A stretch of DNA of 38,675 bases from Bacilli bacterium (GTDB lineage: Bacteria > Bacillota_I > Bacilli_A > RF39 > UBA660). The translations under genes were made by a program, and so were the position numbers. Positions 8,144-26,650 of this stretch are shown piece by piece. The notes beneath the pieces were generated by a model that saw nothing but the letters and a program-made list of their open reading frames with translations, did not search any database and was not told where the DNA came from. How positions within the stretch are numbered: position 1 is the first letter of the stretch; every line of letters starts with the position of its first letter. Where the stretch lies: positions 1 through 38,675 of the forward strand of contig SKGW01000053.1 in assembly GCA_007117285.1 (NCBI GenBank), read 5' to 3'.

Positions 8144-8338
8144 ATGGCATATAAAATAAAAAAAGATGAAAGAGATGAAGAGTTAATTGGAAAAAAAATC
8201 AATAAATTAATTATTGATAGTGATTCTGAACGACCTTTTGAAATTGTTTTTGAATATGAAGCTCTAAAAGAAGAAGATATAGTTGAAAATAAAAAGCGGA
8301 AAGAGGAAAAGAAAAATGATGAAAAACCTTCAAGTTAA
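8144..8338 (+). CDS. Small (64 aa) highly charged Lys/Glu-rich hypothetical protein
   Basis: ATG preceded by AGAGGTGA. MAYKIKKDERDEEL... The upstream part of the track ORF (from 8078) runs through the operator palindrome and lacks an RBS. Confidence 0.5.
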   Translation: MAYKIKKDERDEELIGKKINKLIIDSDSERPFEIVFEYEALKEEDIVENKKRKEEKKNDEKPSS

Positions 8339-9977
8339 CGAAATCAATTCCTTTATTTCCGACGTGAAATTAAATAATCTCAATTCCAGAGAAATTTATC
8401 GCAAATTACTACAGTACAAAGTAGATCCTGAATACGTAAATAGAGATATGACCTCTCTTAGAGATTTCTGCTCAAACATTCCCGAGGTTTTAATCTCCCA
8501 AATCGAAGAAAAAAGAAAAACAAGTAGCGAATATGATCTTTTTAGATCATATATCAAACTTCAAAGTCCCGAAAAATATACATTTAAACATATAAATGCC
8601 TCTTTTAATCATAAGAATGAAGCTGGTGTAAGAGATATAGTTAAATTATATATACCGATTCATTTTAAGCACCTACCCGAAAGTCTTTCCAAGATTTATC
8701 AATTTCTTTTTGATAATAAAATAGATTTTCAATCAAAAATAGCTGGCGAAATTAGATCGGACTTATTTTGCTTGCGAGTAAATTCCAAAGAAAATGCCAA
8801 AAAAGTAATAGATTTTTGCAAAAAAGACAAGCAAATAAGCGGAAATTATACCAAACTCAATCCATTCTTAGCTCAATCTGATGGAATTGGTGTTGCACAA
8901 GACACATATCACCAAAGTTATAATGAGTATGTATCTAGAATATTGGAAGAATATAAAAAAAGAACTCCAAAAATTAGTAATGCATCATTCGACTTGCAGG
9001 ATTTTGTAAAAACTAAGTATTTAACTGCAAAAGATACTCGTAACAAGTATATGTCGAGTGTGTTTTTGAGAAATCTTGAATCAATAAACAGCCGGACTGA
9101 TATTTTTGTTTATTTAAAAGATAAATACAACATTACATTCGATGCAAATCTATTTTACCAATATGAAAGATTTCATGACGGTAAGAACTATTTTTATAAA
9201 GATGAGTCAGGAACAACAATATCAAAAGATACAAATCCAGAATTATATCTTAAACTCCAGGCCAACAATTTTCTACATAAAATTCATTTGAACTATTATA
9301 AAGAAAATCCTGAAAAAGATTTCGTGTTAAATGAAACAATTTCAAAACAAATTTCGCAAAGATTAGACGATATCCTAGACCTAAATTTGAAATCACTTTC
9401 AAATTGTGAAATAAATGCTATATACGATGATCCTAAAATAGCAGAACTAACACCATACTTTTATGCGAACTTTGCAAAAGAGCATAAATTTACCAACTCC
9501 TATGAAACATACCAACTAATTAATCATATTCAGAAAAGTGTTGTAAAAAAAGAAGATGAAAGAATAAAGCAAGAAACAAGCAAAAATCTTCCAAACTATG
9601 TAATAAGTGTAGCAGACGGAACAGTTGTGATAAATAAAACCTCCGAAAACATGTGTAATATATTACTAAAAAAAGCCGATAAAATTAAAAGATATCGAAA
9701 TGTTTCACTTGAATTAAATGATGAATTAATGAAGGAAATTAGCGACATCTCCAAAGCATATCGTTCTTCTATCGCAAGCATTTTATTAGATGAAGAGAGA
9801 AATCAACGAATGATAAACGATAGAAAGGGCCATTTCGGAATATTTGAATATAATCCTCATGAGAAAAATGTTGCTAAGTTTTATGATCCAGAATCAATTA
9901 GAAAACTATATGCTGAACGAAAAGGAAAGAACCTGGAAATAGAAGTGGAAGAAGAGATTGCTTCAAAAGCAAGATAA
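8316..9977 (+). CDS. Large orphan hypothetical protein (~553 aa)
   Basis: ATGATG at 8316, with AAAGAGGA 8 nt upstream, overlaps the 3' end of the small ORF by 23 nt. I have no confident family. The N-terminal third (VKLYIPIHF ... FQSKI ... IRSDLFCLRV ... NPFLAQSDGIGVAQD) is faintly reminiscent of the HopA1 / LanKC-N lyase-like family. Confidence 0.7.
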   Translation: MMKNLQVNEINSFISDVKLNNLNSREIYRKLLQYKVDPEYVNRDMTSLRDFCSNIPEVLISQIEEKRKTSSEYDLFRSYIKLQSPEKYTFKHINASFNHKNEAGVRDIVKLYIPIHFKHLPESLSKIYQFLFDNKIDFQSKIAGEIRSDLFCLRVNSKENAKKVIDFCKKDKQISGNYTKLNPFLAQSDGIGVAQDTYHQSYNEYVSRILEEYKKRTPKISNASFDLQDFVKTKYLTAKDTRNKYMSSVFLRNLESINSRTDIFVYLKDKYNITFDANLFYQYERFHDGKNYFYKDESGTTISKDTNPELYLKLQANNFLHKIHLNYYKENPEKDFVLNETISKQISQRLDDILDLNLKSLSNCEINAIYDDPKIAELTPYFYANFAKEHKFTNSYETYQLINHIQKSVVKKEDERIKQETSKNLPNYVISVADGTVVINKTSENMCNILLKKADKIKRYRNVSLELNDELMKEISDISKAYRSSIASILLDEERNQRMINDRKGHFGIFEYNPHEKNVAKFYDPESIRKLYAERKGKNLEIEVEEEIASKAR

Positions 9978-10002
9978 TTAATAATTTCTTGCTTTTTTAT
10001 TG
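9879..10002 (+). repeat. Direct repeat copy 1 (124 bp): 3' end, stop and terminator of the orphan gene
   Basis: Matches 14127-14249 with 3 substitutions and one 1-nt indel. Confidence 0.95.
9967..9999 (+). terminator. Intrinsic terminator spanning the stop codon of the orphan gene
   Basis: Stem AAGCAAGA (9967-9974) / TCTTGCTT (9987-9994), an AT-rich 12-nt loop, then a T-run. Confidence 0.65.
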
Positions 10003-10017
10003 GCAATAAACCGGTTA

Positions 10018-10027
10018 TTTTGAACAA
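10018..10027 (+). promoter_or_regulatory. Additional TTTTGAACAA box upstream of the glycosylation cassette promoter
   Basis: Exact 10-mer shared with 8014 and 8034. It lies 16 nt after repeat copy 1 and about 24 nt before the TGCTATAAT box. Confidence 0.45.
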
Positions 10028-10050
10028 CATAGTATTAATTTGTACTCTTG

Positions 10051-10059
10051 TGCTATAAT
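10051..10059 (+). promoter_or_regulatory. Extended -10 box (TGCTATAAT) of the glycosylation cassette
   Basis: TGCTATAAT at 10051-10059, about 77 nt upstream of the ATG at 10136. Confidence 0.55.
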
Positions 10060-10135
10060 GAAATTAATAATTGCATAATATGTGATGTAACGTATAAATG
10101 ATTTGAGTGTCCTGCATATTTTGAAAGGAGCAAAT

Positions 10136-11062
10136 ATGAAATTAATCATTCAAATTCCCTGTTATAACGAAGAAAAAACATTAGCAAAAACAATTAGTGA
10201 TTTACCAAAAAAAATAGAAGGAATAGATACAATAGAAATCGTAGTAATTGATGATGGTTCCAATGATAAAACAAGTATAGTGTCAAGTGAATTAGGTGTG
10301 AATTATGTTGTTAGTTTAAATAGAAACAAAGGTTTAGCAACTGCTTTTCAATGTGGAATTGATAAATGTTTGGAACAAGGAGCAGATATTATTGTGAATA
10401 CTGATGGTGATAATCAGTATAAAGCAAAGTATATTAAAGAGTTAATAAAACCTATCTTAGATAAGAAAGCAGATATAGTAATTGGGGATCGTCAAGTAAT
10501 GAAAAACAGAAATATGAATTTGACTAAAAAAATTTTTCAAAAGTTGGGCTCATTGGTTGTAAGCAGATTGGCTCGGAGTAAAATACCTGATGTAACAAGT
10601 GGCTTTAGAGCTTATTCTAGAGATGCAGCTTTAAATATCAATGTTAACTCTGAATATTCTTACTCATTAGAGACGCTAATTGATTCTGGAATTAGAAAAG
10701 AAAAAATCATATCAATACCTATTGAAACAAATCCCAAAACAAGGGAGTCAAGATTATTTAAAAACAATATATACTATATTAAAAAATCAACCTCAACAAT
10801 AATTAGATCCTTCTTATATAATAAGCCGTTAGGGGCTATTTTCACTAGTTCCTTGGTTTTCTTTGGATTAGTTATTATTATGCTTTCGTTATACTTGAGA
10901 AATGAGAGCATTAATTTTCTAATATTAGCACTCCTTTTTTTCATAACAGGAACACAACTAGTCATATTTTCTTTTATTGCAGATTCGATAGCTAACAATA
11001 AAAAAACAAATGATAAAATACTATATAGGATTAAAAAAAATGATTACAAAAAAAACAATTAA
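10136..11062 (+). CDS. GT2 glycosyltransferase, GtrB/CsbB-like polyprenyl-phosphate sugar synthase
   Basis: ATG with an AAAGGAG RBS. IQIPCYNEE, VVIDDGSNDKT and NTDGDNQY (DxD) motifs. Two C-terminal hydrophobic helices, as in GtrB-type enzymes. Confidence 0.85.
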   Translation: MKLIIQIPCYNEEKTLAKTISDLPKKIEGIDTIEIVVIDDGSNDKTSIVSSELGVNYVVSLNRNKGLATAFQCGIDKCLEQGADIIVNTDGDNQYKAKYIKELIKPILDKKADIVIGDRQVMKNRNMNLTKKIFQKLGSLVVSRLARSKIPDVTSGFRAYSRDAALNINVNSEYSYSLETLIDSGIRKEKIISIPIETNPKTRESRLFKNNIYYIKKSTSTIIRSFLYNKPLGAIFTSSLVFFGLVIIMLSLYLRNESINFLILALLFFITGTQLVIFSFIADSIANNKKTNDKILYRIKKNDYKKNN

Positions 11063-11495
11063 TCAATTTTTGAAATATCATTTTATTTCCGGAATAGGGT
11101 GGATTTTAAATTTATTGATTTTCCTGTTTTTCCTAAAAAAATTCAATATTTTTGTATCCAATATTTTATCCACTTATATAACAATAACAGCCGTATTCAT
11201 ACTATCGGTATATAAAGTGTTTGATAGTACAGTTGATAAAAAGTCGATTAACTACGTTATATATTTGATATATAAAGTTTTATCAGTATTTATTTTTTCC
11301 TATGTTCTAGTAATGATTTATAATCTTCTATCAAAGGTTTTAGATAATCCTGTAATATTATCTAAAATACTAATCACCCCCTTAATTTCTTGTAGTAATT
11401 TTTTCGCATTAAAAATAATTATAGAGGAATTTGCCAAAAATAAGATAAAATGCTATTATTTAGAAAATAATGTAAAGGAGAGTAATTTGTATTGA
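11040..11495 (+). CDS. GtrA-like small polytopic membrane protein (putative lipid-linked sugar flippase)
   Basis: About 150 aa with four hydrophobic segments. Sits immediately after and overlaps the GT2 gene. The start is ambiguous (ATG 11040 or ATG 11010). Confidence 0.65.
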   Translation: MITKKTINQFLKYHFISGIGWILNLLIFLFFLKKFNIFVSNILSTYITITAVFILSVYKVFDSTVDKKSINYVIYLIYKVLSVFIFSYVLVMIYNLLSKVLDNPVILSKILITPLISCSNFFALKIIIEEFAKNKIKCYYLENNVKESNLY

Positions 11496-11515
11496 AAGTA
11501 AGGAATAATTTCACG

Positions 11516-12571
11516 ATGATCAAAAAGCTTGAAAAAAAAATCAAAGGTTTTACATTAATAGAGTTACTTGCGATTATTGTTATAATTGGTCTGCTAATAT
11601 TAGTAATTGTACCGGCGGTATCTGATGTAATTGAACATTCTAGAAAGAAAACTTTTCATTCCAGTATATCTAGCTTGGTTAAAATTGCCCAAAACACTTG
11701 TGCCGAAAGGGTGGCATTTGGTCAGGAAAAAGATGTTACTTATACTTTTGAAAACGGTATTCAAACAACTCACCCTAGCAATCAATCAAAATTATCATTT
11801 GCGGGAAAAGCTCCTCACGCTGGATATTTAATTATAAATGGGGACTGTGAGATAAGATTGTCGCTTTCAAACGGGAAATATTTTATTGAAAAGAGTTTTG
11901 AAAGCACGCTAAATCAGCCTGTTGCTTATGACGATCAAGATTTAGAGGCTCCTTATCTGAAGGCACCTTGCCGGGGAATGACTAGCATAGTTGATCCAAG
12001 AGATTCTAAAGAATACAAAATAGTTGAAATTGGAGATCAATGTTGGTTTGCTGAATATTTAGATTATGAAGATCCTCTTTGTATTTCAAATCCAATTGAT
12101 CATCCGTCAGCAACGGGTTGCAGAAGAAATAACAATATAGTTTATTACCAATTCGATGCCCTAATGAATGGCGAAACCACAGAAGGTAGTCAAGGAGTTT
12201 GCCCTACAGGCTGGTACGTTCCTACGGATGACGACTTTCATGCATTAGAAATTTACTATGCCGTCGATGAATGTTCTGCAACAAGAATAGGTTTGCATGG
12301 TTCTGGATCTGAGTCTTCATATGATTGTTCACCGGCAGGGTCAGCGCTAAAACACACTAATTATTTTAATGCGGAATTAGTTGGCTACGTTATACCTTAT
12401 TCGGGAAACCTCTTTAATTATGGTTTTGATGCACTACTAGTTAGTTCAAGTGAATATTATAACGATTACTCCATAGTCAGAATTGTTTCCGAATCTTCTG
12501 ATGCCATTAGTCGAGCCTATACTTCAACGTATAATTTGTTACCCTTGAGGTGCATAAAGAGCAGTCAATGA
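11516..12571 (+). CDS. Prepilin-type leader protein with pilin-like head and C-terminal Fibrobacter-succinogenes-major-paralogous (FISH) domain
   Basis: MIKKLEKKIKG/FTLIELLAIIVIIGLL is a class III signal (G/F with Glu at +5). C-terminal DPRDSKEYKIVEIGDQCWFAEYL ... CPTGWYVPTDDDF ... LPLRCIKSS matches the FISH-domain pattern. Ends with TGA. Confidence 0.85.
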   Translation: MIKKLEKKIKGFTLIELLAIIVIIGLLILVIVPAVSDVIEHSRKKTFHSSISSLVKIAQNTCAERVAFGQEKDVTYTFENGIQTTHPSNQSKLSFAGKAPHAGYLIINGDCEIRLSLSNGKYFIEKSFESTLNQPVAYDDQDLEAPYLKAPCRGMTSIVDPRDSKEYKIVEIGDQCWFAEYLDYEDPLCISNPIDHPSATGCRRNNNIVYYQFDALMNGETTEGSQGVCPTGWYVPTDDDFHALEIYYAVDECSATRIGLHGSGSESSYDCSPAGSALKHTNYFNAELVGYVIPYSGNLFNYGFDALLVSSSEYYNDYSIVRIVSESSDAISRAYTSTYNLLPLRCIKSSQ

Positions 12572-12581
12572 GGTTTTCATT

Positions 12582-14225
12582 ATGAAAAAGAAAAATATAT
12601 TTTTAATGATATCGTTATTAATAGCTCTAAAATTTGTTCTAATTACTAGCAATATAACACCTTACTTTAGAATGATGCGTTTTGATGAGTTGCTCTATAT
12701 TGATCAAACATATAATTTGTTTAATGGTAATTTCTTAGGAGTTTATAACGAATACACTTTAACTAAGGGGTATATATTCCCTCTTTTTGTTTTGTTTTTC
12801 AACGTTTTTAAAATATCGTATGTTATGGGACTCGAAATATTTTATGTAATCACATTATTGTTATTTTTTCGCGCTTTAAGATACTACACAGACAAGGAGA
12901 TTGTTAAAATATCAATTTTTGCAGTTTTGCTTTTTTCACCAGTCATAGTTACTTGGGAAATGTCGAACATGTTTTATCGGAACGGCTTGAGTCTAGTCTT
13001 GGCCTTTCTTTTGTTTGTAATTTTTTTAGAAATATATAACAATTCTAATAACCAAAAAAATTATTTTCTATTTGGCATTGTTGCAGCATTATTTATGCTT
13101 AATAGAGAGGATTTTTATTGGTTTATTCCCATCTTTATATCACTTTTATTTATTAAAACTAAAATCACTAACAAGATTGTGCCGATAGTAATTATTGCCT
13201 GTTCTTTTTTTATAGTCGCAACAGTTAATTATTATTATTATGATACTTTTATAGTGAACGAATTGAAATCTGGTCAATTTAAAAATACATATTCACTAAT
13301 GATGAGCGTCAAAAGAAAAAATGACTCAAACCTAATATTTAGCGAAAGAATTGAGTTAGTAAAAGAGTACAGTCCAGCTTTCAATTCTATTTTTAAAGAT
13401 GATAATTTCGGCACATATATGTCTTTAAAAGGAAATGTAGAGAGTTATAAGGATTTAGAAGATAGAGGAATACCTAATCACTTTTTTTGGATCTTTCGAG
13501 AAAGAGTTCAACAGTTGGGGTATTATGAAAGTGCAAACGAAGCCGAACTATTTTATAAAAGAATATATGATGAAATAAAAAAGGAAATCGATGATGGTAA
13601 TTTAACAAAAGAAAAAACAATTTCGACAGGGATGGCCTTGCCTATATATTTAGATCAGATAAACCTTGAATATTTAGGTGCCGTTTCTGGTAGGCTTGCC
13701 ACTTCTTTCAAGATGTCAGCTACTTATGATGGTATAAAATATGTTGAACCTTGCTCGCCTAAATATTTTGGATATGAAAAAAAGTTTGAAAAAATCACAA
13801 ATGTTGAAAACAAGAAATTTTTATGTTCTGAAAAAACAAGAAATTATAACCAAACGACGATAGTGAAAATAGAAAGAATAAGAAAAGTTTATGCTATAGT
13901 TACACCGTTTTTGCTTCTTGGAGGATTTGGATCCTTGATAGCTTTGATTTACAAGAAAAAGGATATCTTTGCAGAATTGGCAATATTTTTAGCAGTAACT
14001 TTGCTTGCACTTGGAGTGTCGTTTGCAGACTACACTTCGTTTTACGCTTTGCGGTTTTATTATCTTGCACCACTGTACTTTTTTCTTCCAATAGCTAGTA
14101 TTTTGTTAATATTGAAATTAATAAAATTTTATGATCCAGAATCAATTAGGAAACTATATGCTGAACGAAAAGGAAAGAACCTGGAAATAGAAGTGGAAGA
14201 AGAAATTACTTCAAAAGCAAGATAA
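12582..14225 (+). CDS. GT-C-fold-like polytopic membrane glycosyltransferase (GtrC/YfhO/ArnT-type role) with a chimeric C-terminal tail
   Basis: Multi-pass membrane protein. A DELLY motif lies after the first helix (DExxY first-loop signature of GT-C enzymes). It has a soluble insert of about 200 aa and further helices. The last 32 aa are encoded by repeat copy 2. Confidence 0.6.
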   Translation: MKKKNIFLMISLLIALKFVLITSNITPYFRMMRFDELLYIDQTYNLFNGNFLGVYNEYTLTKGYIFPLFVLFFNVFKISYVMGLEIFYVITLLLFFRALRYYTDKEIVKISIFAVLLFSPVIVTWEMSNMFYRNGLSLVLAFLLFVIFLEIYNNSNNQKNYFLFGIVAALFMLNREDFYWFIPIFISLLFIKTKITNKIVPIVIIACSFFIVATVNYYYYDTFIVNELKSGQFKNTYSLMMSVKRKNDSNLIFSERIELVKEYSPAFNSIFKDDNFGTYMSLKGNVESYKDLEDRGIPNHFFWIFRERVQQLGYYESANEAELFYKRIYDEIKKEIDDGNLTKEKTISTGMALPIYLDQINLEYLGAVSGRLATSFKMSATYDGIKYVEPCSPKYFGYEKKFEKITNVENKKFLCSEKTRNYNQTTIVKIERIRKVYAIVTPFLLLGGFGSLIALIYKKKDIFAELAIFLAVTLLALGVSFADYTSFYALRFYYLAPLYFFLPIASILLILKLIKFYDPESIRKLYAERKGKNLEIEVEEEITSKAR

Positions 14226-14249
14226 TTAATAATTTCTTGTTTTTTATTG
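14127..14249 (+). repeat. Direct repeat copy 2 (123 bp)
   Basis: Same sequence as 9879-10002. It includes 32 codons, the TAA and a weakened hairpin/T-run. Confidence 0.95.
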
Positions 14250-14300: not shown

Positions 14301-16061
14301 ATGGAAAAAAAATACATTATAATGCTAAGAATAGCATCGGTTGTACTTATTGTTTTACTGGGAGCAATAGCGTACATTTCACTATCAGTTAATCCAAAAA
14401 GCGTTTTTATTGCATCAATTAATAATACATACACACAAATGTCAAATGTGATGAGCGGATTAAGAGAAAGCAAATTTGCAACACTCTCAAGAGAAAAACC
14501 AGTGTCGCTAATTACTGAAGTTGATTTTGAATTCGGTCATTCAGAAGGTCTTCAAGAACTAGAAATGATCGCAGAAATGCTTGAAGGCTTAGGAATTAAT
14601 TACTCAATTGAGCAAGATTTATTGAATAAAAAATTATATATGGATTTTCGAGCTTTATTTGAAGAAGAGAAAATTTTAGGAGCAAATGTTTTTGCCGAAG
14701 ACGGCGTTACATACTTCTTTATACAAGAATTTTTTGATCATTATGTAGGTGTTGATGATATCGATTTATTTCAAGAAGATGAAACTGATGTAGTTGAGTT
14801 GCTTGATGATGTTGAAATATTAGTTGAAAAGACTAAAACACTATTTTTGAAAAGTTTGAAAAATGATTACTTTTCTTCAGAAAAAACAGATATTACATTA
14901 AATGGAGAGCAAGTATCTGTAACTAGAAATACCTTTGATTTAGATGAAACTAGAATTAAAGAGATGTTGGAATATGTAATTAATGGATTGAAAAAAGATG
15001 AAAAAGCACTTGAATCACTTAAAAACATAGCAAATTATAGTTCGAATGAAAATCTATCAAAAGAAGAAATTATCGAAGGACTTGATGAAGCAATAGCAGA
15101 AATTCCAAATTTAGATTTAGATGGATTTGAAATGTCTTATTCAATCTATGTTAAAGGCCTTTTAAATAAAATAGTTAAACATGATTTCATGATTTCATAC
15201 AATGACTACAATGGAGCACAAACAGTAAACATAATTAACTATAATAGAGATAAAATTAACGTGTTTGAATTTTACAATAATGATGAAATGGTTTTGAGTT
15301 TTGAACTATTAGAAAATGATGAAGAAACATCAAAATTTGGAATATTTGTTTATGAAAATGGTGAACAAATATTTGCAATTGAACTTGAAATGAAATTCAC
15401 AGAAACCGAAATAGAAAAAGATAAGCATTACGAAAGTGAACTTAATTTAAATCTGAAAGTTACAATGGAAGATGATAATATAATTTTTGGAATGAATGCA
15501 ATAACAGAACTGGAAGTACTTGAAAGAATTTATGAACCATCAAGAGGTGTTTTAATAAAATATGATGATATGACAGAAATGCAAATAGAAAACATGGAAC
15601 AAACTTTAGAAGATTTATTTGGCGGAATTGCAGAAATGCTATTCCCTGGAGCTTTTGAAGCAATCGACGACGCTCAAAAAGGAGCTTTTAATGCAACAGG
15701 ATATGGATTGGTAAGAGCAGCAGAAAACGAACATATGAGAAGAGCTTTAGGCGGCGAAACCCTCGAAATTCGCTATGAATTTAAGCTTGATGGTACCAAC
15801 ATGGGAACAAACGGAACAAGTTTAGATTTTAATGGACAACAACCAATTATCGGTTCAATAGTTGTAAAAGAAGATGGACTAGTATATATGGCCGTGTCAG
15901 ATGGAACATATTGCTTGGTGTCAGCAGGAAATAGAGAAGAAGTCTTCACGTATGATGAATATGAATTGATGTCACAATATGCTGTTGATAGTATCTATGA
16001 CTGCACAGTTGAAGGTTTGAACCTTCGATTAAATATTAACAATTTACATTTTGAACGTTAG
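14301..16061 (+). CDS. N-terminally anchored acidic protein ending in a pilin-head-like module (no prepilin leader)
   Basis: One N-terminal hydrophobic helix (IASVVLIVLLGAIAYISLSV) and a long D/E-rich region. The last ~150 aa align by eye with the head domains of the two prepilin proteins (AFNATGYGLVRAAE ... LDFNGQQPIIGSIVV ... SDGTYCLVS). Confidence 0.7.
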   Translation: MEKKYIIMLRIASVVLIVLLGAIAYISLSVNPKSVFIASINNTYTQMSNVMSGLRESKFATLSREKPVSLITEVDFEFGHSEGLQELEMIAEMLEGLGINYSIEQDLLNKKLYMDFRALFEEEKILGANVFAEDGVTYFFIQEFFDHYVGVDDIDLFQEDETDVVELLDDVEILVEKTKTLFLKSLKNDYFSSEKTDITLNGEQVSVTRNTFDLDETRIKEMLEYVINGLKKDEKALESLKNIANYSSNENLSKEEIIEGLDEAIAEIPNLDLDGFEMSYSIYVKGLLNKIVKHDFMISYNDYNGAQTVNIINYNRDKINVFEFYNNDEMVLSFELLENDEETSKFGIFVYENGEQIFAIELEMKFTETEIEKDKHYESELNLNLKVTMEDDNIIFGMNAITELEVLERIYEPSRGVLIKYDDMTEMQIENMEQTLEDLFGGIAEMLFPGAFEAIDDAQKGAFNATGYGLVRAAENEHMRRALGGETLEIRYEFKLDGTNMGTNGTSLDFNGQQPIIGSIVVKEDGLVYMAVSDGTYCLVSAGNREEVFTYDEYELMSQYAVDSIYDCTVEGLNLRLNINNLHFER

Positions 16062-17564: not shown

Positions 17565-18914
17565 TTAATTTATCAATTTTTCAATGTTTTCCGACCATTT
17601 TCTTCTAATTTCTTCTAATTTTTCATTAGAAACAGCCTCAAATCGCGCTGTAAGGTTAGGTCCAGTATTAGAAGCTCTAATTAATGCAAAACCATCTTCA
17701 TAAATAATTTTACACCCATCCAATGTAATAACATCAAGTCCTTCTTTTTCAGCAACCTCTTTAATTTTTTCAATAACTGAAAATTTAATTGAATCTTCGG
17801 TTTTGAACTTTAACTCCTCGGTTGAATAGTAATTGTTAATTCCTTTCAAAAGAGAACTAACAGGAACTTTTTTTCTACTAATAATTTCCATTAATCTAAG
17901 CGAAGCATATATTCCATCGTCATAACCCAAAAATTTATCATTAAAAAATATATGTCCGGAAAATTCTCCTCCAAAAAGGATGTTTTCCTTTGAAATTGCT
18001 GATCTCAAATATGAATTTCCAGTTCTTGACAAAACAGGAATACCTCCCAATTTGTTAATTTCATCTTCTAGTGCCTTAGAACACTTAACATCAAATAAAA
18101 TTCTTTTATCTTTAATTTTTTCTAAAATGTCTCGAATAACAATAATCATTAATTTATCGGGCTCGATAATATTTCCCAATTCATCGACCATGCCAATTCG
18201 ATCAGCGTCTCCATCTAGAGCAAAGCCAACATCAGCACCTGTTTCAAGCACCTTATCAGATAAATCTTTTAAATTCTCCGGTACGCTTGGGTCAGGGTGG
18301 TGGTTTGGAAAAGAAGGATCTGATTCAAAAAACAAAGGCGTATATTTGATTGGTAATCTTTTTAAAATATCTTCGATAACAATTGAACCGCTACCATTTC
18401 CAACATCAAAGACCACATCTAAATTACCGATTTCAACATCTTTAAGAAGAAAATCCATGTAATGCTCTTTTATATCAACCTTTTTACAAGTTCCTTTTCC
18501 AGAGTTGAAATTTTTACTTTTAATAAGTTCTTTAAAATCTTGGATTTCTTGTCCGTGAGAATTATATTGGCCGTTAAAAGAAAACTTAAAACCATTATAC
18601 TCCTTTGGATTGTGAGAAGCGGTAATCATAATACCTGATTTTGATTTAAAAAAATGCCAAGAAAAATAATACATCGGAGTTGTAACAAGTCCTAAATTAA
18701 TTACATCAATTCCGCTGTCCATAATACCCTTGCTTAAAGCAGCAAAAAGATTTTCTGATGAATCGCGATTATCATAGCCAATAGTAGTAAACTCCTGTCC
18801 ATCATTGCCAATCCACGTGCCAAAAGCACGCCCTAAGTTATAGGCCATATCCTCATTTACTTGACTTGGATATACGCCTCTAATATCATAAGCTCTAAAA
18901 ATTGTTTCATCCAT
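17565..18914 (-). CDS. Phosphomannomutase/phosphoglucomutase (alpha-D-phosphohexomutase family)
   Basis: ITASHNPKEYNGFKF (active-site Ser loop), FALDGDADRIGMVD (metal loop), GGEFSGHIFF. The start is taken as ATG 18914 with a GGGTGA RBS. The GTG used by the track lies inside that RBS. Confidence 0.9.
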   Translation of the reverse strand: MDETIFRAYDIRGVYPSQVNEDMAYNLGRAFGTWIGNDGQEFTTIGYDNRDSSENLFAALSKGIMDSGIDVINLGLVTTPMYYFSWHFFKSKSGIMITASHNPKEYNGFKFSFNGQYNSHGQEIQDFKELIKSKNFNSGKGTCKKVDIKEHYMDFLLKDVEIGNLDVVFDVGNGSGSIVIEDILKRLPIKYTPLFFESDPSFPNHHPDPSVPENLKDLSDKVLETGADVGFALDGDADRIGMVDELGNIIEPDKLMIIVIRDILEKIKDKRILFDVKCSKALEDEINKLGGIPVLSRTGNSYLRSAISKENILFGGEFSGHIFFNDKFLGYDDGIYASLRLMEIISRKKVPVSSLLKGINNYYSTEELKFKTEDSIKFSVIEKIKEVAEKEGLDVITLDGCKIIYEDGFALIRASNTGPNLTARFEAVSNEKLEEIRRKWSENIEKLIN

Positions 18915-18930
18915 AGTATCACCCAAACAA

Positions 18931-18939
18931 ATTATAACA
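18931..18939 (-). promoter_or_regulatory. Extended -10 box (TGTTATAAT) for the phosphohexomutase gene
   Basis: The reverse complement of 18931-18939 is TGTTATAAT, about 17 nt upstream of the ATG. Implies a short leader. Confidence 0.5.
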
Positions 18940-18948
18940 TATAATTGT

Positions 18949-18977
18949 TTGAAAAATTAGACTAAACTGTGTATAAT
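18949..18977 (+). promoter_or_regulatory. Sigma-A-type promoter of the glucan synthase gene
   Basis: TTGAAA (18949-18954), a 17-nt spacer, TATAAT (18972-18977). GGAGG at 18995-18999 and ATG at 19005. Confidence 0.65.
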
Positions 18978-19004
18978 GTAAATGTATGTAACGTGGAGGT
19001 AATT

Positions 19005-22000
19005 ATGAAAAACACATCGATTAGAAATGTTAGAAAAAACATGAAATTTATTACAAATTATTATAAAAAACTAACAACTTATACCAAACAAACAAAAAGT
19101 GTCGGTAGTATAAACGAATGGATCGTTGATAATTACTACTTATTGAGTGAGCAAGAACAAACGATAAATCACGAATTAAGTAGTTTAAAAATACTTCAAA
19201 TTAAACCAAAGCGAAAGCAATATCTAGACAACTTAATTTGTTCATATTTAGAACAAGAGAATTTTCGATTAGATACAAACTTGCTATTTAAGTTTCTTAA
19301 TAATTATCAATTAGAAAATGATGATTTTTTTACGTATGATGAAATTGATTACATAAATAGTTCTATAAAATGTAACATAATTTCAAAATTAAGAATTTTA
19401 AGCGAAAAATTAAAATATAAATTTTTAGAAAAAGAAAAAATAGATCAATGTTTCAAAAAAATATCTAGCCAACTCGAGAAGGACAGCGAAGCAAGCATAG
19501 ATAACTGCCTACCAATAGATAAATCATTAATTGGTTCTCATTTTAAAATACTTGAGATTAACCACAGACTAAACAGCTTGGGCGAAAGATCAGAAGAAAT
19601 ATTTGTTAAGTTAAACGAGTTATTGATTTCTAACAATACCTCATTAAAAGAAATAATTAACGTAGAGCATGATGAAAGATCAAATGAAAACATACTAATG
19701 GTAAACTTAATTTCATCTTTTAAAGTTGCTATCAAATTTAAGTTAGAAGACTTGTATGCCAAAATAAGCTATGTTGAAAAAGCTTTAATTAACGAAAAAG
19801 CAGAAGTTTATGACACAATGTATGAAGTTTCAAAAATAGAGTATAGAAGTGAAATAAAAAAACAAGTAAAAAAGAAAAAAATAAGCGAGTACGAATTCGC
19901 TAAAAATTTGTTGGAAAAAGCGGGCGAGGAGCACGTTGGTTTTCACCTTTTTAAAAAGAAAAGATATAAAGCGCGAGCATATTTGTATGTGACGGCTGTT
20001 TTTTTAGTCGCTCTTTTTGTTAATTATGCGATATATATTGAATTGGGACTTTTAGCATTCATTCTTTTCCTATTACCAATGATAGGATTTTCGGTTGAAG
20101 TTATAACGCAAATTTTAATGAAAAATGTTGATACTCAAACGTTATTTAGAATAAAACTGGAAAATCATCTTCCTCAGAAGTACAGTACAATGGTTGTTAT
20201 TCCAACTATCTTAAAAGATCCAGACAAAGTAAATCAAATGTTTGATAACTTAGAGTTGTATTATTTATCAAACAGAGCACAAAATTTATATTTTTGTTTG
20301 CTTGGCGATGTTACTAGTGAATCAACTGCTAAAACAAAAATGGATGATAAAATTTTAAATGCTGGTCTTGAACGAGCAAGAAAGTTAAATGAAACATACG
20401 GTAAAAATATTTTTCATTTTGCTTATCGTAATCGTTTTTTCAATCCAAAAGAGGGATCGTTTTTAGGATACGAGAGAAAAAGAGGAGCACTCCACCATTT
20501 CAATCAGGCCCTATTGGGGAAATTATCTTTATCAGATCAAGAAAAATATTTTAAAGGGCATACGCTAGCTCCTTTAGAGGGGAAAATCAAGTATATAATA
20601 ACACTTGATGCCGACACAAAATTACTATTAAACACAGCATTAAAATTAATAGGAACAATGGTTCATCCAATGAATAAACCAATTCTTTCTGATGATGGAA
20701 GAAAAGTAGTAAAAGGTCATGCAATAATGCAACCGCGAGTCAGTATAGATGTCGAAGTAACAAATATATCAGAATACTCTCAATTGTTTGCTGGACTTGG
20801 TGGACTCGATATTTATTCAACAAAGCAATTTGATTTATATCAAGATGTTTTTGGTGAAGGAAGTTTTACAGGAAAAGGGATTTACGATTTAGAAATTTTT
20901 GATAAAGTTTTAGGAGATACTTTTCCAGAAAATTTAATCTTAAGCCACGACCTTTTAGAAGGTAATTACCTTCGTTGTGGATATATAAGCGATGTTGAAT
21001 TATTTGATGGATTTCCTTCAAAATATTTAAATGATGCAATGCGTCATCATAGATGGACTAGAGGAGATTGGCAGATAATTGGTTGGCTTAAAAAATATGT
21101 TAAAGATCATAAAAATGATTTAGCATTGAATCCTTTAAATTTAATAAGTCGATGGAAAATATTTGATAACTTAAGAAGAAGTTTAAGAAGTCCATTATTA
21201 TTTCTTATTGTTTTATTTGGGTTTGCATTAACTGATCGACCGACATTAGTTATGGGAATTGTTTTTATAATAATTGCTGTTCCTATTTTCTTCTACCTAT
21301 TGCATCAATTACTAGCAAGACAAAAATATGATATTTTACTTAGATACTATATGAGAATAATATGGGGATTAATGGCTGTTATTGCAAAATCTTTATTAGT
21401 TTTTGCACTACTTCCATACGAGGCCTTCCTATACATGAACGCAATTGTAAAAGCTTGTTATCGCATGCTTGTGAGTAAGAAAAACTTGTTAAACTGGGTT
21501 ACTTCTGAAGAAGTTGAGGCAACAGCAAAAAATACGCTAGGAAATTACTTTAAAAATTTCAAAGTTAATTACGTTGCAGCAATAGCAATTCTTTACTTTG
21601 CTAAAGATTTATCGATGGAGCATGTGTTTTTATCATACTTAGTAGCATTTATATGGTTAATTGCTCCGTTTTTGATGTACTTTGTTAGTAGAGATATTAA
21701 AAACGAACAAGAACAACCAGGAAAGAGAATGGAAAGCGATGTTCGTGAAATAGCACAACAAACTTGGGCTTATTTTGATAAAACATTAACAAAAGAAAAC
21801 AATTTCTTAGTTCCTGATAACTTTCAATTAAATAGAAATCAAAAATTTGATTCTAGAACCTCACCTACAAATATAGCATTTTCATTAACGGCTGTAATTT
21901 CAGCTTTTGAATTAAAATTAATAAGTAAAAACAGTGCTATAGATAAGATTAATAATATAATTAAAAACGTTGAATCTTTGAAAAAATGGAATGGACATTT

Positions 22001-25000
22001 ATACAATTGGTATGATATTAAAACAAAAAAAGAACTTCCACCACATTTTATTTCAACAGCTGATAGTGGAAACTTCATTTCGACTTTATATGTGGTAAAA
22101 GGATTTTTGAGTAAATGTTCTGGTTACAACTCTTTGAAGTATAGAATTCAAAAACTAATTGATAAAACAGACTTTTCAAAACTATATAACGAAGAAGGCG
22201 ATGTATTTAGTATTGGTTATGTAGTTAACGAAGGAACTTTGGTTCCGTATAACTATAATAACTTTTTATCAGAAGCGAGACTTGCTAGTTTTGTAGCTAT
22301 TGCAAAAGGTGATGTTCCTTTTAAACACTGGTTTAGATTGGATAAAACTTTGACAAAGCATAAATGGTATAAAGGAGTAGTTTCTTGGTCGGGAACGATG
22401 TTTGAATACTACATGCCACTTATTTTCATGAAAACATTTGAACACACATTACTTGATGAGACATATGCTTTTGCTTATTACGCTCAAAAAGAATTTGTTA
22501 ATGAAGTAAGTTCAAAAATACCTTGGGGTATTACTGAGTCAGCATACAATGAATTAGATGATTCGCAAAATTACAAGTATAAAGCATTTGGAATTCCTTA
22601 TTTGAAATTCCACGATAGTGAAATACCACAAATAGTAATATCACCATACGGTTCGATTATGGCTTTGACTAAATATCCGGTTGAAGTTTATAACAATATT
22701 AAAAAAATGAAAAAAATTGGTATGCAAGGTGAGTTCGGACTTTACGAGGCCTATGACCACGAAGATGGAGCTATAGTTAAAGCTTACTACGCTCACCATC
22801 AAGGAATGATTTTAACAAGTATAACTAATTATTTAAAAAACAATATAATCCAAGAGTATTTTCATGCCGACAAAAATATACAATCAGTTGAAATACTTTT
22901 AAAAGAAAAAGTTCAAATCAGAACATATATTGATTTGAAAATAGCTAGATATAAAAAATACAATTATAAGAGAGATGTTATCGATAGTGATATGCGAGAA
23001 CAGGAAGGAATTATGCCAATTCCTGAGGTTGGGGTATTATCAAATGGATTTTATTCAACTTTCATAAATGATCGAGGAATAGGATTCAGCAAATATAAAA
23101 ACTTACAAATAAATAGATACAGAAAAATAACTGATGAAAATCATGGATTGTTTGTTTATATTAAAAACACAAAAACTAATAAAATTTATCCTAACACTTA
23201 CAGTCCATCTTGCACGGAGCCCGATCACTATCATGTTGTCTTTGCATCGGATAGAATAAAATTTGTTCGTGAAGATGAAGATCTTATAACAACAACTGAA
23301 ATTACAGTTGCTAAGGATCATAATGCAGAAATTAGAAAAATCAAAGTTGAAAATACTTCACAAGAAAGCGTTGAGTTAGAATTAACTTCATATGGTGAAG
23401 TGATAATGGCTCGTCCTGAAGAAGACATAGCACACCCTGTTTTTAATAACGTTACAATTAAAGCTGAGATTGATGAAGTTACTTCCTCTTTAATGTTCTC
23501 AAGACGTTCAAGAACAAAAGAAAACACAAAATATTTTGTTATTAATCGCTTTTTTGCAGAAGAAGATGACGGTGTTTTTGAGTATGAAACTTCAAGAATG
23601 AATTTCTTAGGAAGAAACAACACAACTCTTAATCCAAGTAAAATAGTTAAAAATGAATCATTATCATCAGATTGCACACAACTATTAGAACCGATAATGA
23701 GTATTAGAAAAAAAATAACATTAAAACCAAACTCTAAAAAAACTTTATACTTACTTGTTGGATTTGGTAAATCTAGACAACAAGTTATGGAAATTGTTAA
23801 TGCTTACAACAATGATAAAAAAATTGAAGCAGCCTTTGATAAGGCCACTGTTTTAAACAATATGCGTAATAGGTATGCTGGTCTAAGCGGAATTGAAACT
23901 AGAGCTTACAATAGCCTCTTAAAATACGTCTACCAGCCAACTTATGAAGCAGGAAGATCTAATTTACTAAGAACTAATATTTTAACGCAACAAAACTTGT
24001 GGAAATTTGGAGTTTCGGGAGATCTTCCAATTATAGTCGTTGATGTTTTTAGTGCTGAGAATTCAGGGTTTATAAAAGATATACTTAGAGCATATGAGTT
24101 TTATAAAAGCAGAGCAATTTATATCGACATAATTATTATAAACAATGAAATTGATGAGAAAAAAGAAATTGTAAATAAATATGTTGAAAGATTACTTTAT
24201 CGAATTAACAATTTAAATTATTTCGAGGACTCTCCTGGTAGTGTCAAAGTAGTAAGTGATATTACCGAAGAAGAGAGAACTCTTCTAAAAATGGTATCCA
24301 GCTTATACTTTGATGGATCTCAGAGAAAACCTTTAACGGATCAAATATATGAAATGGAAGCTACAAAAACTTCAATTTCTAGACTTTGTTTCAAAAAAGA
24401 TATGATTCCATTGGGAAATAAAAATTCAAATGAGTACGGAAAATTTAGTGAAGATGGAAAAGAATTTACAATAAAAACAATGGATACACCAATGCCGTGG
24501 TCAAATGTTATTGCAAACGAAGAATTTGGTAGTGTTATTACTAATAACTTCGGTGGTTTTACATATGCTCATAACAGTAGAGAGTTTAAGTTAACTTCTT
24601 GGAGCAATGATCCAGTGGTTGATCCACCTAGTGAATCAATTTTCATAGACGGACTTAGATTAGTTCCGAGTGAAGTAGTTCATGGATTTGGATATTCTAA
24701 ATTTATTACGAAAACAGAAAATTATGATATTGAAACTACTGTTTTTGTTCCAACTAATGATAATGTCAAAATATATGATGTTTTAATTAAATCCAAAAAT
24801 AGAAAAAGATGCTTGGTGGAATTCGATATTAAACCGGTATTGGGAGTTAGCGAAGAAACTACAAACAAATATATTTTATCGGAATTTGATCCAGTGCATA
24901 ATTGTTTATTTATGAGGAATACATATAGTAAAATTTTCAAAAATGAAAAAGTCTTTGTTAGTAGTTCAAAAGATATAAGTAGTTGTAATCTGGAGGATAT

Positions 25001-26576
25001 TAACTCTAAGTCAATTATGGTAAATCTTGATTTAGAAAATGAAAACAGAGTTAGCTTTATGTTGGGGTGTGGTGATTTTGAAAACGTTATACCAAAGTAT
25101 AGAGATTTTGAAAATATCAACAATGAACTTAATAATGTCAAAAAATATTGGGATTCTAAGGTTGGTAATATAACTATTGAAACACCTGATAAAGATCTTA
25201 ACAATATGGTTAATGGTTGGATACTCTACCAGGCCTACGCGTCGAGATTATATTCAAGAGCGGCGTTTTATCAAGTTGGTGGAGCAACTGGTTTTAGAGA
25301 TCAACTTCAAGATTCGCTTTGTCTTCTATACAACAATCCAGAATATGCAAGAAAACAAATTTTAGAGCATGCAAATCATCAGTTTGCTGAAGGCGATGTT
25401 CTTCACTGGTGGCATGAAGATTTAAGATTTGGAGCAAGAACAAGGTTTTCAGACGATTATCTTTGGCTTGTGTATTGTACTTATGAATATGTTAAAGCAA
25501 CTAATGATTACTCAATATTAGAAGAAAAAGTAGGTTTTGTAGAAGCAGATCAACTTCAAGAATCAGAATCAGAAAAAGGTGTTGATTTTACTTATTCTGC
25601 ATCAAAGGAAACACTATACTATCACTTGAAACTTGCAATTAATAAAGCTGTTTCTCAATTTGGGAAAAACAAACTTCCGTTAATGGGCAGTGGTGACTGG
25701 AATGATGGTATGAGTAAAGTAGGTCATTTAGGAAAAGGTGAGAGTGTTTGGGTTGGATTTTTCCTTCATGAAAACCTTGAACGAATGAGTGAAATGACCG
25801 AAGATGCGGAATTTAAAGAAATGTGTATGGCAAAATCTCGTGAATTAAAAGAGTCAATTAATGAAAACGCTTGGGATGGAGCTTGGTATACTAGAGCGTT
25901 CTTTGACGATGGAACACCTATGGGAACATCTGAAAACAAAGAATGTCAAATAGATCTAATCTCTCAAGCATGGAGCATTATTACTGATGTTGCGCCAAAA
26001 GATAGAAGAAAATCAGTTATTTCTGCTGTTGAAAATCAACTTGTTGATAAAGAAGTAGGACTAATTAAACTTTTAGACCCAGCTTTCACAGGACTTGAAA
26101 ACAATCCAGGATACATAAGCGATTATCTTCCTGGTGTTCGTGAAAATGGTGGTCAATATACTCATGGAGCGCTTTGGTATATAATGGCTTTGGCAAAACT
26201 TCGAGATCCAAGAGCGTATGAACATTTTAAAATGATAATGCCAAGTGGTAAGGACTCCGATGTTTACAAGGTTGAACCATATGTCATTGCGGCAGATATA
26301 TATTCTAATCCTGCTTTCAACGGTCACGGTGGATGGACTTGGTATACAGGTTCTGCCAGCTGGGCCTACAAAGTTGCTTTGGAAGGAATATTAGGCTTTA
26401 AAAAAGTTGGAAACACTTTAGTTATAAAACCTAATTTCCCAAAAAAGTGGGGAAGTATAAAAATTTCTTATGAGTATTTTGAAACAACATACAATTTAGA
26501 AATTAACTATAAGGATGAAGAATCTATTATCGAACTAGAAAATGACAAAAAAATACATGATATAGTTTTAAAGTAA
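19005..26576 (+). CDS. cgs: Cyclic beta-1,2-glucan synthase-like giant protein (membrane GT84-type domain, glucoamylase-like middle region, GH94 phosphorylase-type C-terminus)
   Basis: 2523 aa from ATG 19005. GT84-like motifs: ERKRGAL, ITLDADT, MQPRV, GKGIYD, LSHDLLEG, RHHRWTRGDWQ, flanked by hydrophobic helices. GH94-like motifs: GATGFRDQLQD, HWWH, GSGDWNDGM, RENGGQYTHGALW, WYTGSASWAY. Confidence 0.85.
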   Translation: MKNTSIRNVRKNMKFITNYYKKLTTYTKQTKSVGSINEWIVDNYYLLSEQEQTINHELSSLKILQIKPKRKQYLDNLICSYLEQENFRLDTNLLFKFLNNYQLENDDFFTYDEIDYINSSIKCNIISKLRILSEKLKYKFLEKEKIDQCFKKISSQLEKDSEASIDNCLPIDKSLIGSHFKILEINHRLNSLGERSEEIFVKLNELLISNNTSLKEIINVEHDERSNENILMVNLISSFKVAIKFKLEDLYAKISYVEKALINEKAEVYDTMYEVSKIEYRSEIKKQVKKKKISEYEFAKNLLEKAGEEHVGFHLFKKKRYKARAYLYVTAVFLVALFVNYAIYIELGLLAFILFLLPMIGFSVEVITQILMKNVDTQTLFRIKLENHLPQKYSTMVVIPTILKDPDKVNQMFDNLELYYLSNRAQNLYFCLLGDVTSESTAKTKMDDKILNAGLERARKLNETYGKNIFHFAYRNRFFNPKEGSFLGYERKRGALHHFNQALLGKLSLSDQEKYFKGHTLAPLEGKIKYIITLDADTKLLLNTALKLIGTMVHPMNKPILSDDGRKVVKGHAIMQPRVSIDVEVTNISEYSQLFAGLGGLDIYSTKQFDLYQDVFGEGSFTGKGIYDLEIFDKVLGDTFPENLILSHDLLEGNYLRCGYISDVELFDGFPSKYLNDAMRHHRWTRGDWQIIGWLKKYVKDHKNDLALNPLNLISRWKIFDNLRRSLRSPLLFLIVLFGFALTDRPTLVMGIVFIIIAVPIFFYLLHQLLARQKYDILLRYYMRIIWGLMAVIAKSLLVFALLPYEAFLYMNAIVKACYRMLVSKKNLLNWVTSEEVEATAKNTLGNYFKNFKVNYVAAIAILYFAKDLSMEHVFLSYLVAFIWLIAPFLMYFVSRDIKNEQEQPGKRMESDVREIAQQTWAYFDKTLTKENNFLVPDNFQLNRNQKFDSRTSPTNIAFSLTAVISAFELKLISKNSAIDKINNIIKNVESLKKWNGHLYNWYDIKTKKELPPHFISTADSGNFISTLYVVKGFLSKCSGYNSLKYRIQKLIDKTDFSKLYNEEGDVFSIGYVVNEGTLVPYNYNNFLSEARLASFVAIAKGDVPFKHWFRLDKTLTKHKWYKGVVSWSGTMFEYYMPLIFMKTFEHTLLDETYAFAYYAQKEFVNEVSSKIPWGITESAYNELDDSQNYKYKAFGIPYLKFHDSEIPQIVISPYGSIMALTKYPVEVYNNIKKMKKIGMQGEFGLYEAYDHEDGAIVKAYYAHHQGMILTSITNYLKNNIIQEYFHADKNIQSVEILLKEKVQIRTYIDLKIARYKKYNYKRDVIDSDMREQEGIMPIPEVGVLSNGFYSTFINDRGIGFSKYKNLQINRYRKITDENHGLFVYIKNTKTNKIYPNTYSPSCTEPDHYHVVFASDRIKFVREDEDLITTTEITVAKDHNAEIRKIKVENTSQESVELELTSYGEVIMARPEEDIAHPVFNNVTIKAEIDEVTSSLMFSRRSRTKENTKYFVINRFFAEEDDGVFEYETSRMNFLGRNNTTLNPSKIVKNESLSSDCTQLLEPIMSIRKKITLKPNSKKTLYLLVGFGKSRQQVMEIVNAYNNDKKIEAAFDKATVLNNMRNRYAGLSGIETRAYNSLLKYVYQPTYEAGRSNLLRTNILTQQNLWKFGVSGDLPIIVVDVFSAENSGFIKDILRAYEFYKSRAIYIDIIIINNEIDEKKEIVNKYVERLLYRINNLNYFEDSPGSVKVVSDITEEERTLLKMVSSLYFDGSQRKPLTDQIYEMEATKTSISRLCFKKDMIPLGNKNSNEYGKFSEDGKEFTIKTMDTPMPWSNVIANEEFGSVITNNFGGFTYAHNSREFKLTSWSNDPVVDPPSESIFIDGLRLVPSEVVHGFGYSKFITKTENYDIETTVFVPTNDNVKIYDVLIKSKNRKRCLVEFDIKPVLGVSEETTNKYILSEFDPVHNCLFMRNTYSKIFKNEKVFVSSSKDISSCNLEDINSKSIMVNLDLENENRVSFMLGCGDFENVIPKYRDFENINNELNNVKKYWDSKVGNITIETPDKDLNNMVNGWILYQAYASRLYSRAAFYQVGGATGFRDQLQDSLCLLYNNPEYARKQILEHANHQFAEGDVLHWWHEDLRFGARTRFSDDYLWLVYCTYEYVKATNDYSILEEKVGFVEADQLQESESEKGVDFTYSASKETLYYHLKLAINKAVSQFGKNKLPLMGSGDWNDGMSKVGHLGKGESVWVGFFLHENLERMSEMTEDAEFKEMCMAKSRELKESINENAWDGAWYTRAFFDDGTPMGTSENKECQIDLISQAWSIITDVAPKDRRKSVISAVENQLVDKEVGLIKLLDPAFTGLENNPGYISDYLPGVRENGGQYTHGALWYIMALAKLRDPRAYEHFKMIMPSGKDSDVYKVEPYVIAADIYSNPAFNGHGGWTWYTGSASWAYKVALEGILGFKKVGNTLVIKPNFPKKWGSIKISYEYFETTYNLEINYKDEESIIELENDKKIHDIVLK

Positions 26577-26601
26577 GGAGTATGCTCTTTACTTTTTTCA
26601 A

Positions 26602-26630
26602 TTCACAAAATAAACAAATAATGGTATACT
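26602..26630 (+). promoter_or_regulatory. Sigma-A-type promoter of pgi
   Basis: TTCACA (26602-26607), a 17-nt spacer with TG, TATACT (26625-26630). ATG at 26651. Confidence 0.55.
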
Positions 26631-26650
26631 TTTATAAAGGTAGTGATTAT

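Follow-up and report, generated by a model that had tools for sequence, protein, structure and literature searches.

A repeat-bounded gene cassette pairing a candidate lipid-carrier glycosylation pathway with a pilin-like protein in a Bacilli bacterium

Gene content and predicted functions of the cassette

This study concerns a four-gene cassette on contig SKGW01000053.1 of a Bacilli bacterium (assembly GCA_007117285.1); the 38,675 nucleotides (nt) of this contig are referred to as the window. The cassette encodes, in this order, a family 2 glycosyltransferase (GT2), a small GtrA-family membrane protein, a protein that joins a prepilin leader to a FISUMP domain (FISUMP pilin), and a polytopic membrane protein with a predicted GT-C-type glycosyltransferase fold. 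We propose, with a probability of about 0.45, that the cassette represents a complete lipid-carrier pathway of the Gtr/Arn type for extracytoplasmic glycosylation, together with its probable client, the cargo-bearing pilin-like protein. As judged from homology, the GT2 enzyme would load undecaprenyl phosphate with a single sugar at the cytoplasmic face, drawing on a housekeeping nucleotide sugar, the GtrA-family protein would be a putative helper in the translocation of the lipid-linked sugar across the membrane, and the polytopic protein would pass the sugar to an extracytoplasmic acceptor by means of two acidic residues of its first outer loop, D35 and E36. The leading candidate for this acceptor is the co-encoded prepilin-type protein. 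A prepilin peptidase whose gene lies elsewhere would cut the latter behind Gly11, its N-terminal helix would hold it in the membrane or mediate its polymerization, and the FISUMP domain would be displayed as a ligand-binding domain.

The four genes are co-directional on the plus strand, and open reading frame (ORF) predictions and gene calls placed them where a preliminary description of this DNA had located them. They are the GT2 gene (10136-11062), the GtrA gene (11040-11495, within an ORF opening at 11010), the FISUMP pilin gene (11516-12571), and the polytopic gene (12582-14225). The first two overlap by 23 nt, and the spacings reported earlier were reproduced, with 20 nt separating the GtrA gene from the FISUMP pilin gene and 10 nt separating the latter from the polytopic gene. 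A Shine-Dalgarno-like motif was found 5' of all four gene starts. The gaps of 10 to 20 nt indicate probable co-transcription in the window.

The GT2 protein, assigned to the GtrB/ArnC/DPMS type of polyprenyl-phosphate sugar synthases, matched Pfam family Glycos_transf_2 at 9.7e-25 and consists of a GT-A catalytic domain followed by the two C-terminal transmembrane (TM) helices noticed previously (hydrophobic, residues 230-285). Its best matches in NCBIfam were AglJ, dolichyl-phosphate hexose transferase, PpgS, PgfS, and ArnC, with scores under the equivalog cutoffs of every named model. The best relatives of solved structure in the Protein Data Bank (PDB) were the Pyrococcus Dol-P-Man synthase (5mlz, 4.6e-17), ArnC (6e-11), and GtrB (4e-9), each of which is known to load one sugar onto polyprenyl phosphate; the alignment with ArnC spans the full length, the membrane part included. 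The second gene encodes the expected four-helix GtrA-like protein: it has four hydrophobic segments and gave a borderline match to PF04138 (GtrA_DPMS_TM; 26.1 bits, E 1.1e-5) that covers 115 of the 117 profile positions.

The gene between the flippase-like and GT-C-like genes had been described as coding for a prepilin-leader protein with a FISH domain, and both parts were recovered by profile searches. The class III leader reads KKIKG/FTLIELL (also given as KKIKG/FTLIELLAIIVIIGLLILV), with cleavage after G11. It scored 22.7 bits with the N_methyl model (cutoff, 21.2), and the N terminus also matched GspG/ComGC models of NCBIfam and solved pilins in the PDB. Behind a short pilin module of about 125 amino acids (aa) and a linker lies the Cys-rich FISUMP domain (residues ~155-351), which matched PF09603 (Fib_succ_major) at 1.4e-14 and TIGR02145 at 2.2e-21 and retains the conserved Cys, Trp, and Gly columns. 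In an AlphaFold2 model, the FISUMP part reached a predicted local distance difference test (pLDDT) score of about 85 to 95, and the pilin head and linker were poorly modeled. An identical leader/FISUMP architecture was found in P0003, P0005, P0009, P0018, P0022, P0023, and P0025. The Fib_succ_major motif has been grouped with CLec2-type (C-type-lectin-fold) variable regions of diversity-generating retroelements (DGRs), with little functional information (PMC5758913). The earlier designation of this protein as lectin-like gained no structural confirmation, since the top Foldseek match of the domain, a snake-venom C-type-lectin-like protein, had a nonsignificant probability of 0.10. We also considered the gene as a DGR target and rejected this idea: despite the domain being of a known DGR target type, no template repeat was present in the window.

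The polytopic protein (547 aa) combines about 10 TM helices with an insert of roughly 200 aa (residues ~221-416) that is soluble and extracytoplasmic. No model of Pfam, NCBIfam, or PHROGs matched it, and a word-indexed homologue search recovered nothing beyond its own sequence. When 1.84 billion representatives were scanned in full with HMMER, 1979 homologues reached E<=1e-3, 1182 of them E<=1e-10, which defines a family of ~2000 representatives counted at 50% identity; the closest members are ~33% identical and about 500 aa long. D35, R133, R175, N216, and E331 are shared by all 26 members of an alignment, which nearly always have D at position 36; the alternative, E, is found in the protein from the window. 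The DELLY motif pointed out in the preliminary description corresponds to F-D35-E36-L-L-Y and directly follows TM1. Sequence profiles gave little connection to named glycosyltransferases: among 96 relatives, Pfam produced a single PMT_2 match (2.3e-5) and none to YfhO or further GT-C models, faint Wzy_C matches (0.0033) occurred in 2 of the 26 aligned relatives, the window protein lacks a tetratricopeptide repeat (TPR) or Wzy_C domain according to Pfam, and profile searches of PDB sequences with alignments of 26 and 70 members found no GT-C enzyme.

The alignment-based AlphaFold2 model of this protein (pLDDT 87.1; predicted template modeling score, 0.89) shows TM1 at residues 3-21, a loop helix that begins with F34-D35-E36, and about nine more membrane helices. 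When this model was compared with the PDB by Foldseek, ranks 1 to 18 were occupied exclusively by GT-C proteins, namely, STT3, ArnT, ALG12, ALG9, AglB, PglB, EmbA/B, Pmt4, and DPY19, with probabilities of up to 0.96, as opposed to 0.04 or less for all subsequent matches; the scores of these GT-C matches are weak (E values of 0.035 to 1, template modeling [TM] scores of 0.27 to 0.37). On the strength of the model, we accept a predicted GT-C-like fold for the polytopic protein, which belongs to no named GT-C family. The earlier GT-C label is thus retained at the level of the fold and finds no counterpart in sequence, the search for PMT_2- or YfhO-type domains in the 547-aa protein having been negative. 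Taken together, the relatives of the GT2, the GtrA-family protein, and a GT-C-like fold whose first loop holds an invariant Asp fit the three-component lipid-carrier scheme that had been suggested for these genes.

A different role of the polytopic protein has to be weighed at this point. It may be another membrane enzyme or a scaffold, such as a polymerase, ligase, or pilus-biogenesis factor, that resembles GT-C proteins only through generic similarity of helical bundles. This would agree with Foldseek E values that are all at or above 0.035, TM scores that do not exceed 0.37, the lack of a sequence match in Pfam, NCBIfam, or the PDB, and the faint Wzy_C signals in two family members. We regard it as very improbable, since (i) the 18 top structural matches are all GT-C proteins and are followed by a sharp drop in probability, (ii) the helix of the first outer loop starts with an invariant acidic residue, a feature shared with GT-C enzymes, (iii) the family is persistently linked to polyprenyl-phosphate GT2 enzymes and to GtrA or ArnE/F-type partners, as detailed below, and (iv) one member matches PMT_2.

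Gene neighborhoods and the candidate acceptor

The neighborhoods of polytopic homologues were compared in 14 loci from species-representative genomes (Bacilli, "Tenericutes," and metagenome-assembled genomes of Lachnospiraceae and Oscillospiraceae), in 11 metagenome loci, and on the contigs of the closest proteins, amounting to about 29 distinct loci overall. At least 15 of these, namely, the window and at least 14 others (L006, L008, L009, L013, L014, L016, L019, L022, L023/L026, L025, L027, L028, L032, and L033), have a GT2 gene next to the polytopic gene or close by. Glycos_transf_2 was also the commonest neighbor family at 13 distant loci, with 10 of 109 neighboring ORFs. The third component is more variable. 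A strong GtrA match (95.7 bits) follows the GT2 gene and adjoins the polytopic homologue in L008; the closest relatives have no GtrA gene in their clusters. Two half-size EamA proteins (~120 aa, ArnE/ArnF-like) are encoded directly after the polytopic gene in L027 (6586-7294) and L028 (6588-7296), a layout that equals the arnC-arnT-arnE-arnF pattern, and L033 has a single gene of the EamA half-transporter type (2335-2688). Such a nonorthologous replacement of GtrA by EamA proteins would be expected for a polytopic enzyme whose substrate is a polyprenyl-phosphate sugar already flipped across the membrane. Other features of the family include a GtrA-polytopic fusion protein (P0109), a run of three tandem paralogous polytopic genes with two GT2 genes (L009, 3124-9480), and a gene for a 721-aa DUF7657/DUF7654 protein upstream of the GT2 gene in L027.

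Five loci of differing arrangement have a prepilin-type gene in one directon with a polytopic homologue: (i) the window, with the order GT2-GtrA-pilin-polytopic; (ii) L005, where a pilin-like gene lies directly upstream of that for the polytopic protein P0029; (iii) L022, with polytopic-GT2-pilin; (iv) the five-gene cluster of L006 (1806-7404), L023 (1-5558), and L026 (609-6449), which encodes a pilin with BspA-type leucine-rich repeats (BspA-LRR), a 515- to 522-aa protein, a nitroreductase-like protein, a GT2, and the polytopic protein; and (v) the more divergent L032, with a pilin-like BspA-LRR protein, the polytopic gene, and GT2. The GT2 enzymes of the five-gene clusters are 42 to 52% identical to that of the window. 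Their 515- to 522-aa protein is free of recognizable domains and gave a faint GH88 match. Throughout these loci, the short pilin module stays alike and is joined to either FISUMP or BspA-LRR as cargo. The link between the pathway and a pilin-like protein that had been suggested from the window thereby gains support from clusters of different arrangement. The particular order GT2-GtrA-pilin-polytopic, in contrast, was found in no second instance among the loci examined, so that the earlier proposal gains no support from conservation of this order.

These neighborhoods also bear on whether the pilin-like gene is functionally linked to the pathway at all. It might be a passenger, with both belonging to variable surface-island genes that gather at shared hot spots. 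A passenger would be compatible with the uniqueness of the four-gene order, with the occurrence of the pilin module on unlinked genes (window 27847-30501 and L004), and with the FISUMP pilins P0009 and P0003, which have no GT2, GtrA, or GT-C neighbors. We judge it improbable in view of the short gaps that point to co-transcription in the window and of the distribution of prepilin-type genes in the 362 kb of DNA examined, where 8 of 10 lie no more than 4.5 kb from a polytopic homologue and do so in five arrangements. The isolation of P0009 and P0003 from glycosylation genes implies instead that the linkage follows the polytopic clade and pilin-like proteins generally, not the FISUMP domain.

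A more serious rival leaves the pathway intact and changes its acceptor. The sugar may be transferred to a cell-envelope glycopolymer (teichoic acid or secondary wall polysaccharide), as by GtrC or YfhO, the FISUMP and LRR pilins being co-expressed adhesins or binders, not substrates, that would recognize the modified envelope or be displayed by way of it. Most loci of the polytopic family have a GT2 gene without a pilin gene. In addition, P0122 is a fusion of an Acyl_transf_3 domain with a polytopic protein; Acyl_transf_3 domains usually act on glycans, and the fusion hints at glycopolymer acceptors for part of the family. Genes that follow the polytopic homologue in two distant loci, namely, that for an LtaS-type membrane protein with a Sulfatase domain directly after the polytopic gene in L007 (2143-3711) and that for a GH25 muramidase-domain protein in L014 (7978-8781), give a hint of a cell-wall or teichoic-acid setting in other clades. 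The overlap of Fib_succ_major with C-type-lectin-fold DGR variable regions suggests that the FISUMP domain binds a ligand (PMC5758913). Three observations speak for the pilin instead: (i) the cargo varies between FISUMP and BspA-LRR on a constant pilin module, which is unexpected if specific glycan binding were conserved; (ii) the cassette contains no polymer-synthesis genes; and (iii) the pilin linkage survives five rearrangements. On balance, we consider a glycopolymer acceptor unlikely, and at the same time it remains a serious rival.

Apart from the P0122 fusion, several points weigh against a lipid-carrier pathway with the pilin-like protein as its client. (i) About 20 more distant polytopic loci have no pilin neighbor, and the polytopic family as a whole is consequently not dedicated to pilins. 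(ii) The pilin-linked loci come from related organisms, and shared ancestry may inflate the association. (iii) The pilin module is not confined to genes linked to the pathway, as mentioned above. (iv) A disordered, Ser/Thr-rich linker, the kind that is glycosylated in streptococci, is missing from the FISUMP pilin. (v) No pilus-assembly machinery or prepilin peptidase was found among the ORFs of the window; such genes may lie elsewhere in the genome. (vi) The GtrA score equals the curated gathering cutoff exactly, making it a threshold match. (vii) The polytopic protein has no sequence-level tie to any characterized GT-C enzyme, and its structural matches to GT-C proteins are weak. With these points taken into account, the pilin-like protein is still the leading candidate acceptor as far as genomic data permit a choice. 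A broader proposal, which we put forward more tentatively, is that this polytopic clade may be a dedicated glycosyltransferase for cargo-bearing pilins that has its own synthase for the undecaprenyl-phosphate sugar and is carried, in uncultured low-GC Bacilli, by small accessory cassettes that recombination between their long direct repeats could add or remove.

Repeat boundaries and genomic setting

The four genes are bracketed by a 122-nt direct repeat whose copies, at 9876-9997 and 14124-14245 of the plus strand, are 96% identical and spaced 4248 nt apart. The left copy takes up the 3' end of the upstream flanking gene (8316-9977, plus strand), with its final 32 codons, its stop codon, and a terminator hairpin; this gene marks the insertion site and encodes a soluble protein of 553/564 aa with no known domain. 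The right copy forms the corresponding end of the polytopic gene, again with 32 codons, stop codon, and terminator. The 564-aa and polytopic proteins accordingly share their final 32 residues, FYDPESIRKLYAERKGKNLEIEVEEEI[A/T]SKAR. Five homologues of the upstream protein were found among 5.8 billion clusters, and the tail FYDPE..SKAR is native to that family. The tail is missing from all polytopic homologues, whose alignments end at residues 512 to 518. The 3' end of the polytopic gene is thus chimeric, its last 32 codons, stop codon, and terminator having been borrowed from the upstream gene. The repeat hairpin has a folding energy of -12.7 kcal/mol (z -3.4) and is followed by a T-run; the sequence is AT-rich and was folded separately. 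A promoter/terminator scan of the window gave counts equal to those expected from shuffled sequence. A possible extended -10 element, TGcTATAAT, lies upstream of the GT2 gene (10048-10059, plus strand) in cassette-specific DNA; it is a consensus match only and was not listed by the scan since it has no -35 element. By this arrangement, the cassette would have its own promoter region and use the duplicated terminator of the neighboring gene.

Downstream of the right copy lies a gene for a 586-aa protein with an N-terminal TM helix and no domain match (14301-16061, plus strand). Locus L020, from a related genome, contains an 81%-identical orthologue of the upstream gene product, followed after 76 nt by a 68%-identical, 585-aa orthologue of the downstream one. 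A three-way alignment identified it as an empty site with a single repeat copy (1588-1722) and without the cassette. The two copies in the window are much closer to each other than either is to that of L020, which implies that the duplication arose in or near the window's own lineage. The cassette (~4.1 kb, 9876-14245) is, as read from this comparison, an accessory element, either inserted or deleted between flanking repeats, and homologous recombination between the 122-nt repeats would delete it cleanly. Other origins were rejected. An integrase-mediated island does not fit a cassette that holds four genes only and no recombinase, and a phage origin, as in classical gtr clusters, does not fit flanks without PHROG matches and the lack of relatives in IMG/VR, from which the 122-nt repeat is absent as well. 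Base composition did not mark the cassette as foreign.

Outside the cassette, the window contains a second modular pilin-like gene (27847-30501, plus strand). Its product of about 885 aa joins a short pilin module like that of the FISUMP protein (N_methyl, 22.7 bits) to a DUF4434 cargo (1.4e-11), and the host lineage seems to employ the pilin module as a general anchor for varied extracellular domains. The left end (2-1497) codes for a leucine-rich-repeat protein and for a protein that combines a sortase domain with a Cu_amine_oxidN1 fragment; the sortase indicates a walled cell of the Gram-positive type. An ABC ATPase appears to be spread over two ORFs about 100 nt apart, the N-terminal ABC_tran part at 1618-2007 and the DrrA C-terminal domain at 2107-2508; the split may reflect a frameshift, an interruption of the gene, or a fault in the assembly. 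Not far from the cassette is a cluster for glucan metabolism, in which phosphoglucomutase and phosphoglucose-isomerase-like genes flank a gene for a 2535-aa GH94/glycoamylase-type protein (17565-27802; cyclic or linear beta-glucan phosphorylase or synthase type).

Comparison with known systems

To our knowledge, GT-C-dependent glycosylation of pilins from a lipid carrier has so far been described essentially for TfpW only. If the pilin-like protein is indeed the acceptor, this type of glycosylation would extend from Pseudomonas to Gram-positive-type bacteria, with the cassette as the first such system outside the Proteobacteria. It would then no longer be limited to structural pilins but include modular ones with displayed adhesin or lectin domains. 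A membrane family of ~2000 representatives without a curated domain model would gain a first functional handle, and the four-gene unit is compact enough for direct testing in a heterologous host. Furthermore, the repeat-bounded presence or absence suggests that surface glycosylation and an adhesin are exchanged as a unit, which would be of relevance to phage and immune evasion in gut and environmental communities.

The preliminary description named no known Gtr-type module dedicated to a pilin-like protein; as a claim of missing precedent this is too strong, since the GT-C enzyme TfpW is encoded directly downstream of pilA in Pseudomonas aeruginosa group IV strains, where it glycosylates the pilin and requires a DDX motif (doi 10.1101/2020.04.19.049825). 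As in pilA-tfpW, a GT-C-type polytopic gene lies beside a type IV pilin gene (10-nt gap in the window), and the sugar, lipid-linked D-arabinofuranose (D-Araf) in the case of TfpW, comes from a polyprenyl-phosphate carrier, as we propose for the cassette. There are also clear differences. TfpW has a C-terminal TPR domain and attaches Araf oligomers to the major pilin of a retractile pilus in a Gram-negative host, whereas the host of the cassette is a low-GC bacterium of the Gram-positive type, the pilin-like protein bears a large cargo domain, and the donor synthase GT2 and GtrA are encoded inside the cassette. The cassette transferase, which was compared with TfpW at the level of domains, comes from a different family that lacks a Pfam model. 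Unlike TfpO/PglL enzymes (Wzy_C), the polytopic protein has no Wzy_C domain.

The combination of a GT2 synthase, GtrA (or an EamA pair), and a GT-C-fold protein with predicted extracytoplasmic action resembles the Gtr, CsbB-GtcA-YfhO, and ArnC-ArnT-ArnE/F systems, which are known to act on O-antigen, teichoic acids, or lipid A. Unlike in these systems, the transferase of the cassette matches none of the YfhO, PMT_2, ArnT/PMT, or GtrC types, a pilin-like gene is embedded in the operon, and the cassette is not phage borne.

Extracytoplasmic O-glycosylation of proteins is known in streptococci. There, GtrB, a GT2 synthase of undecaprenyl-phosphate sugars, and PgtC2, a GT-C-fold enzyme of the YfhO family, attach single sugars (PMC12041528), and PgfS and PgfM1 form a further system (PMC5856776). 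PgfS is among the best NCBIfam matches of the cassette GT2. The streptococcal transferases belong to the YfhO and Pgf families, and their targets are Ser/Thr-rich disordered regions, not pilin-like proteins, whereas the FISUMP pilin has no such region.

A parallel to the pilin-like protein itself is offered by the modular type IV pilins PilB and PilC of Streptococcus sanguinis, which consist of a class III leader, a pilin module, and a C-terminal functional or adhesive module. The cassette-linked proteins differ in their cargo, FISUMP or BspA-LRR, and no pilus machinery is visible in the window. We know of no dedicated glycosylation partner described for modular pilins such as PilB and PilC. 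Taken together, the arrangement is a variation on systems already known for three-component glycosylation and for pilin glycosylation; at its center stands a GT-C-like family without annotation, and its vehicle is a repeat-bounded accessory cassette.

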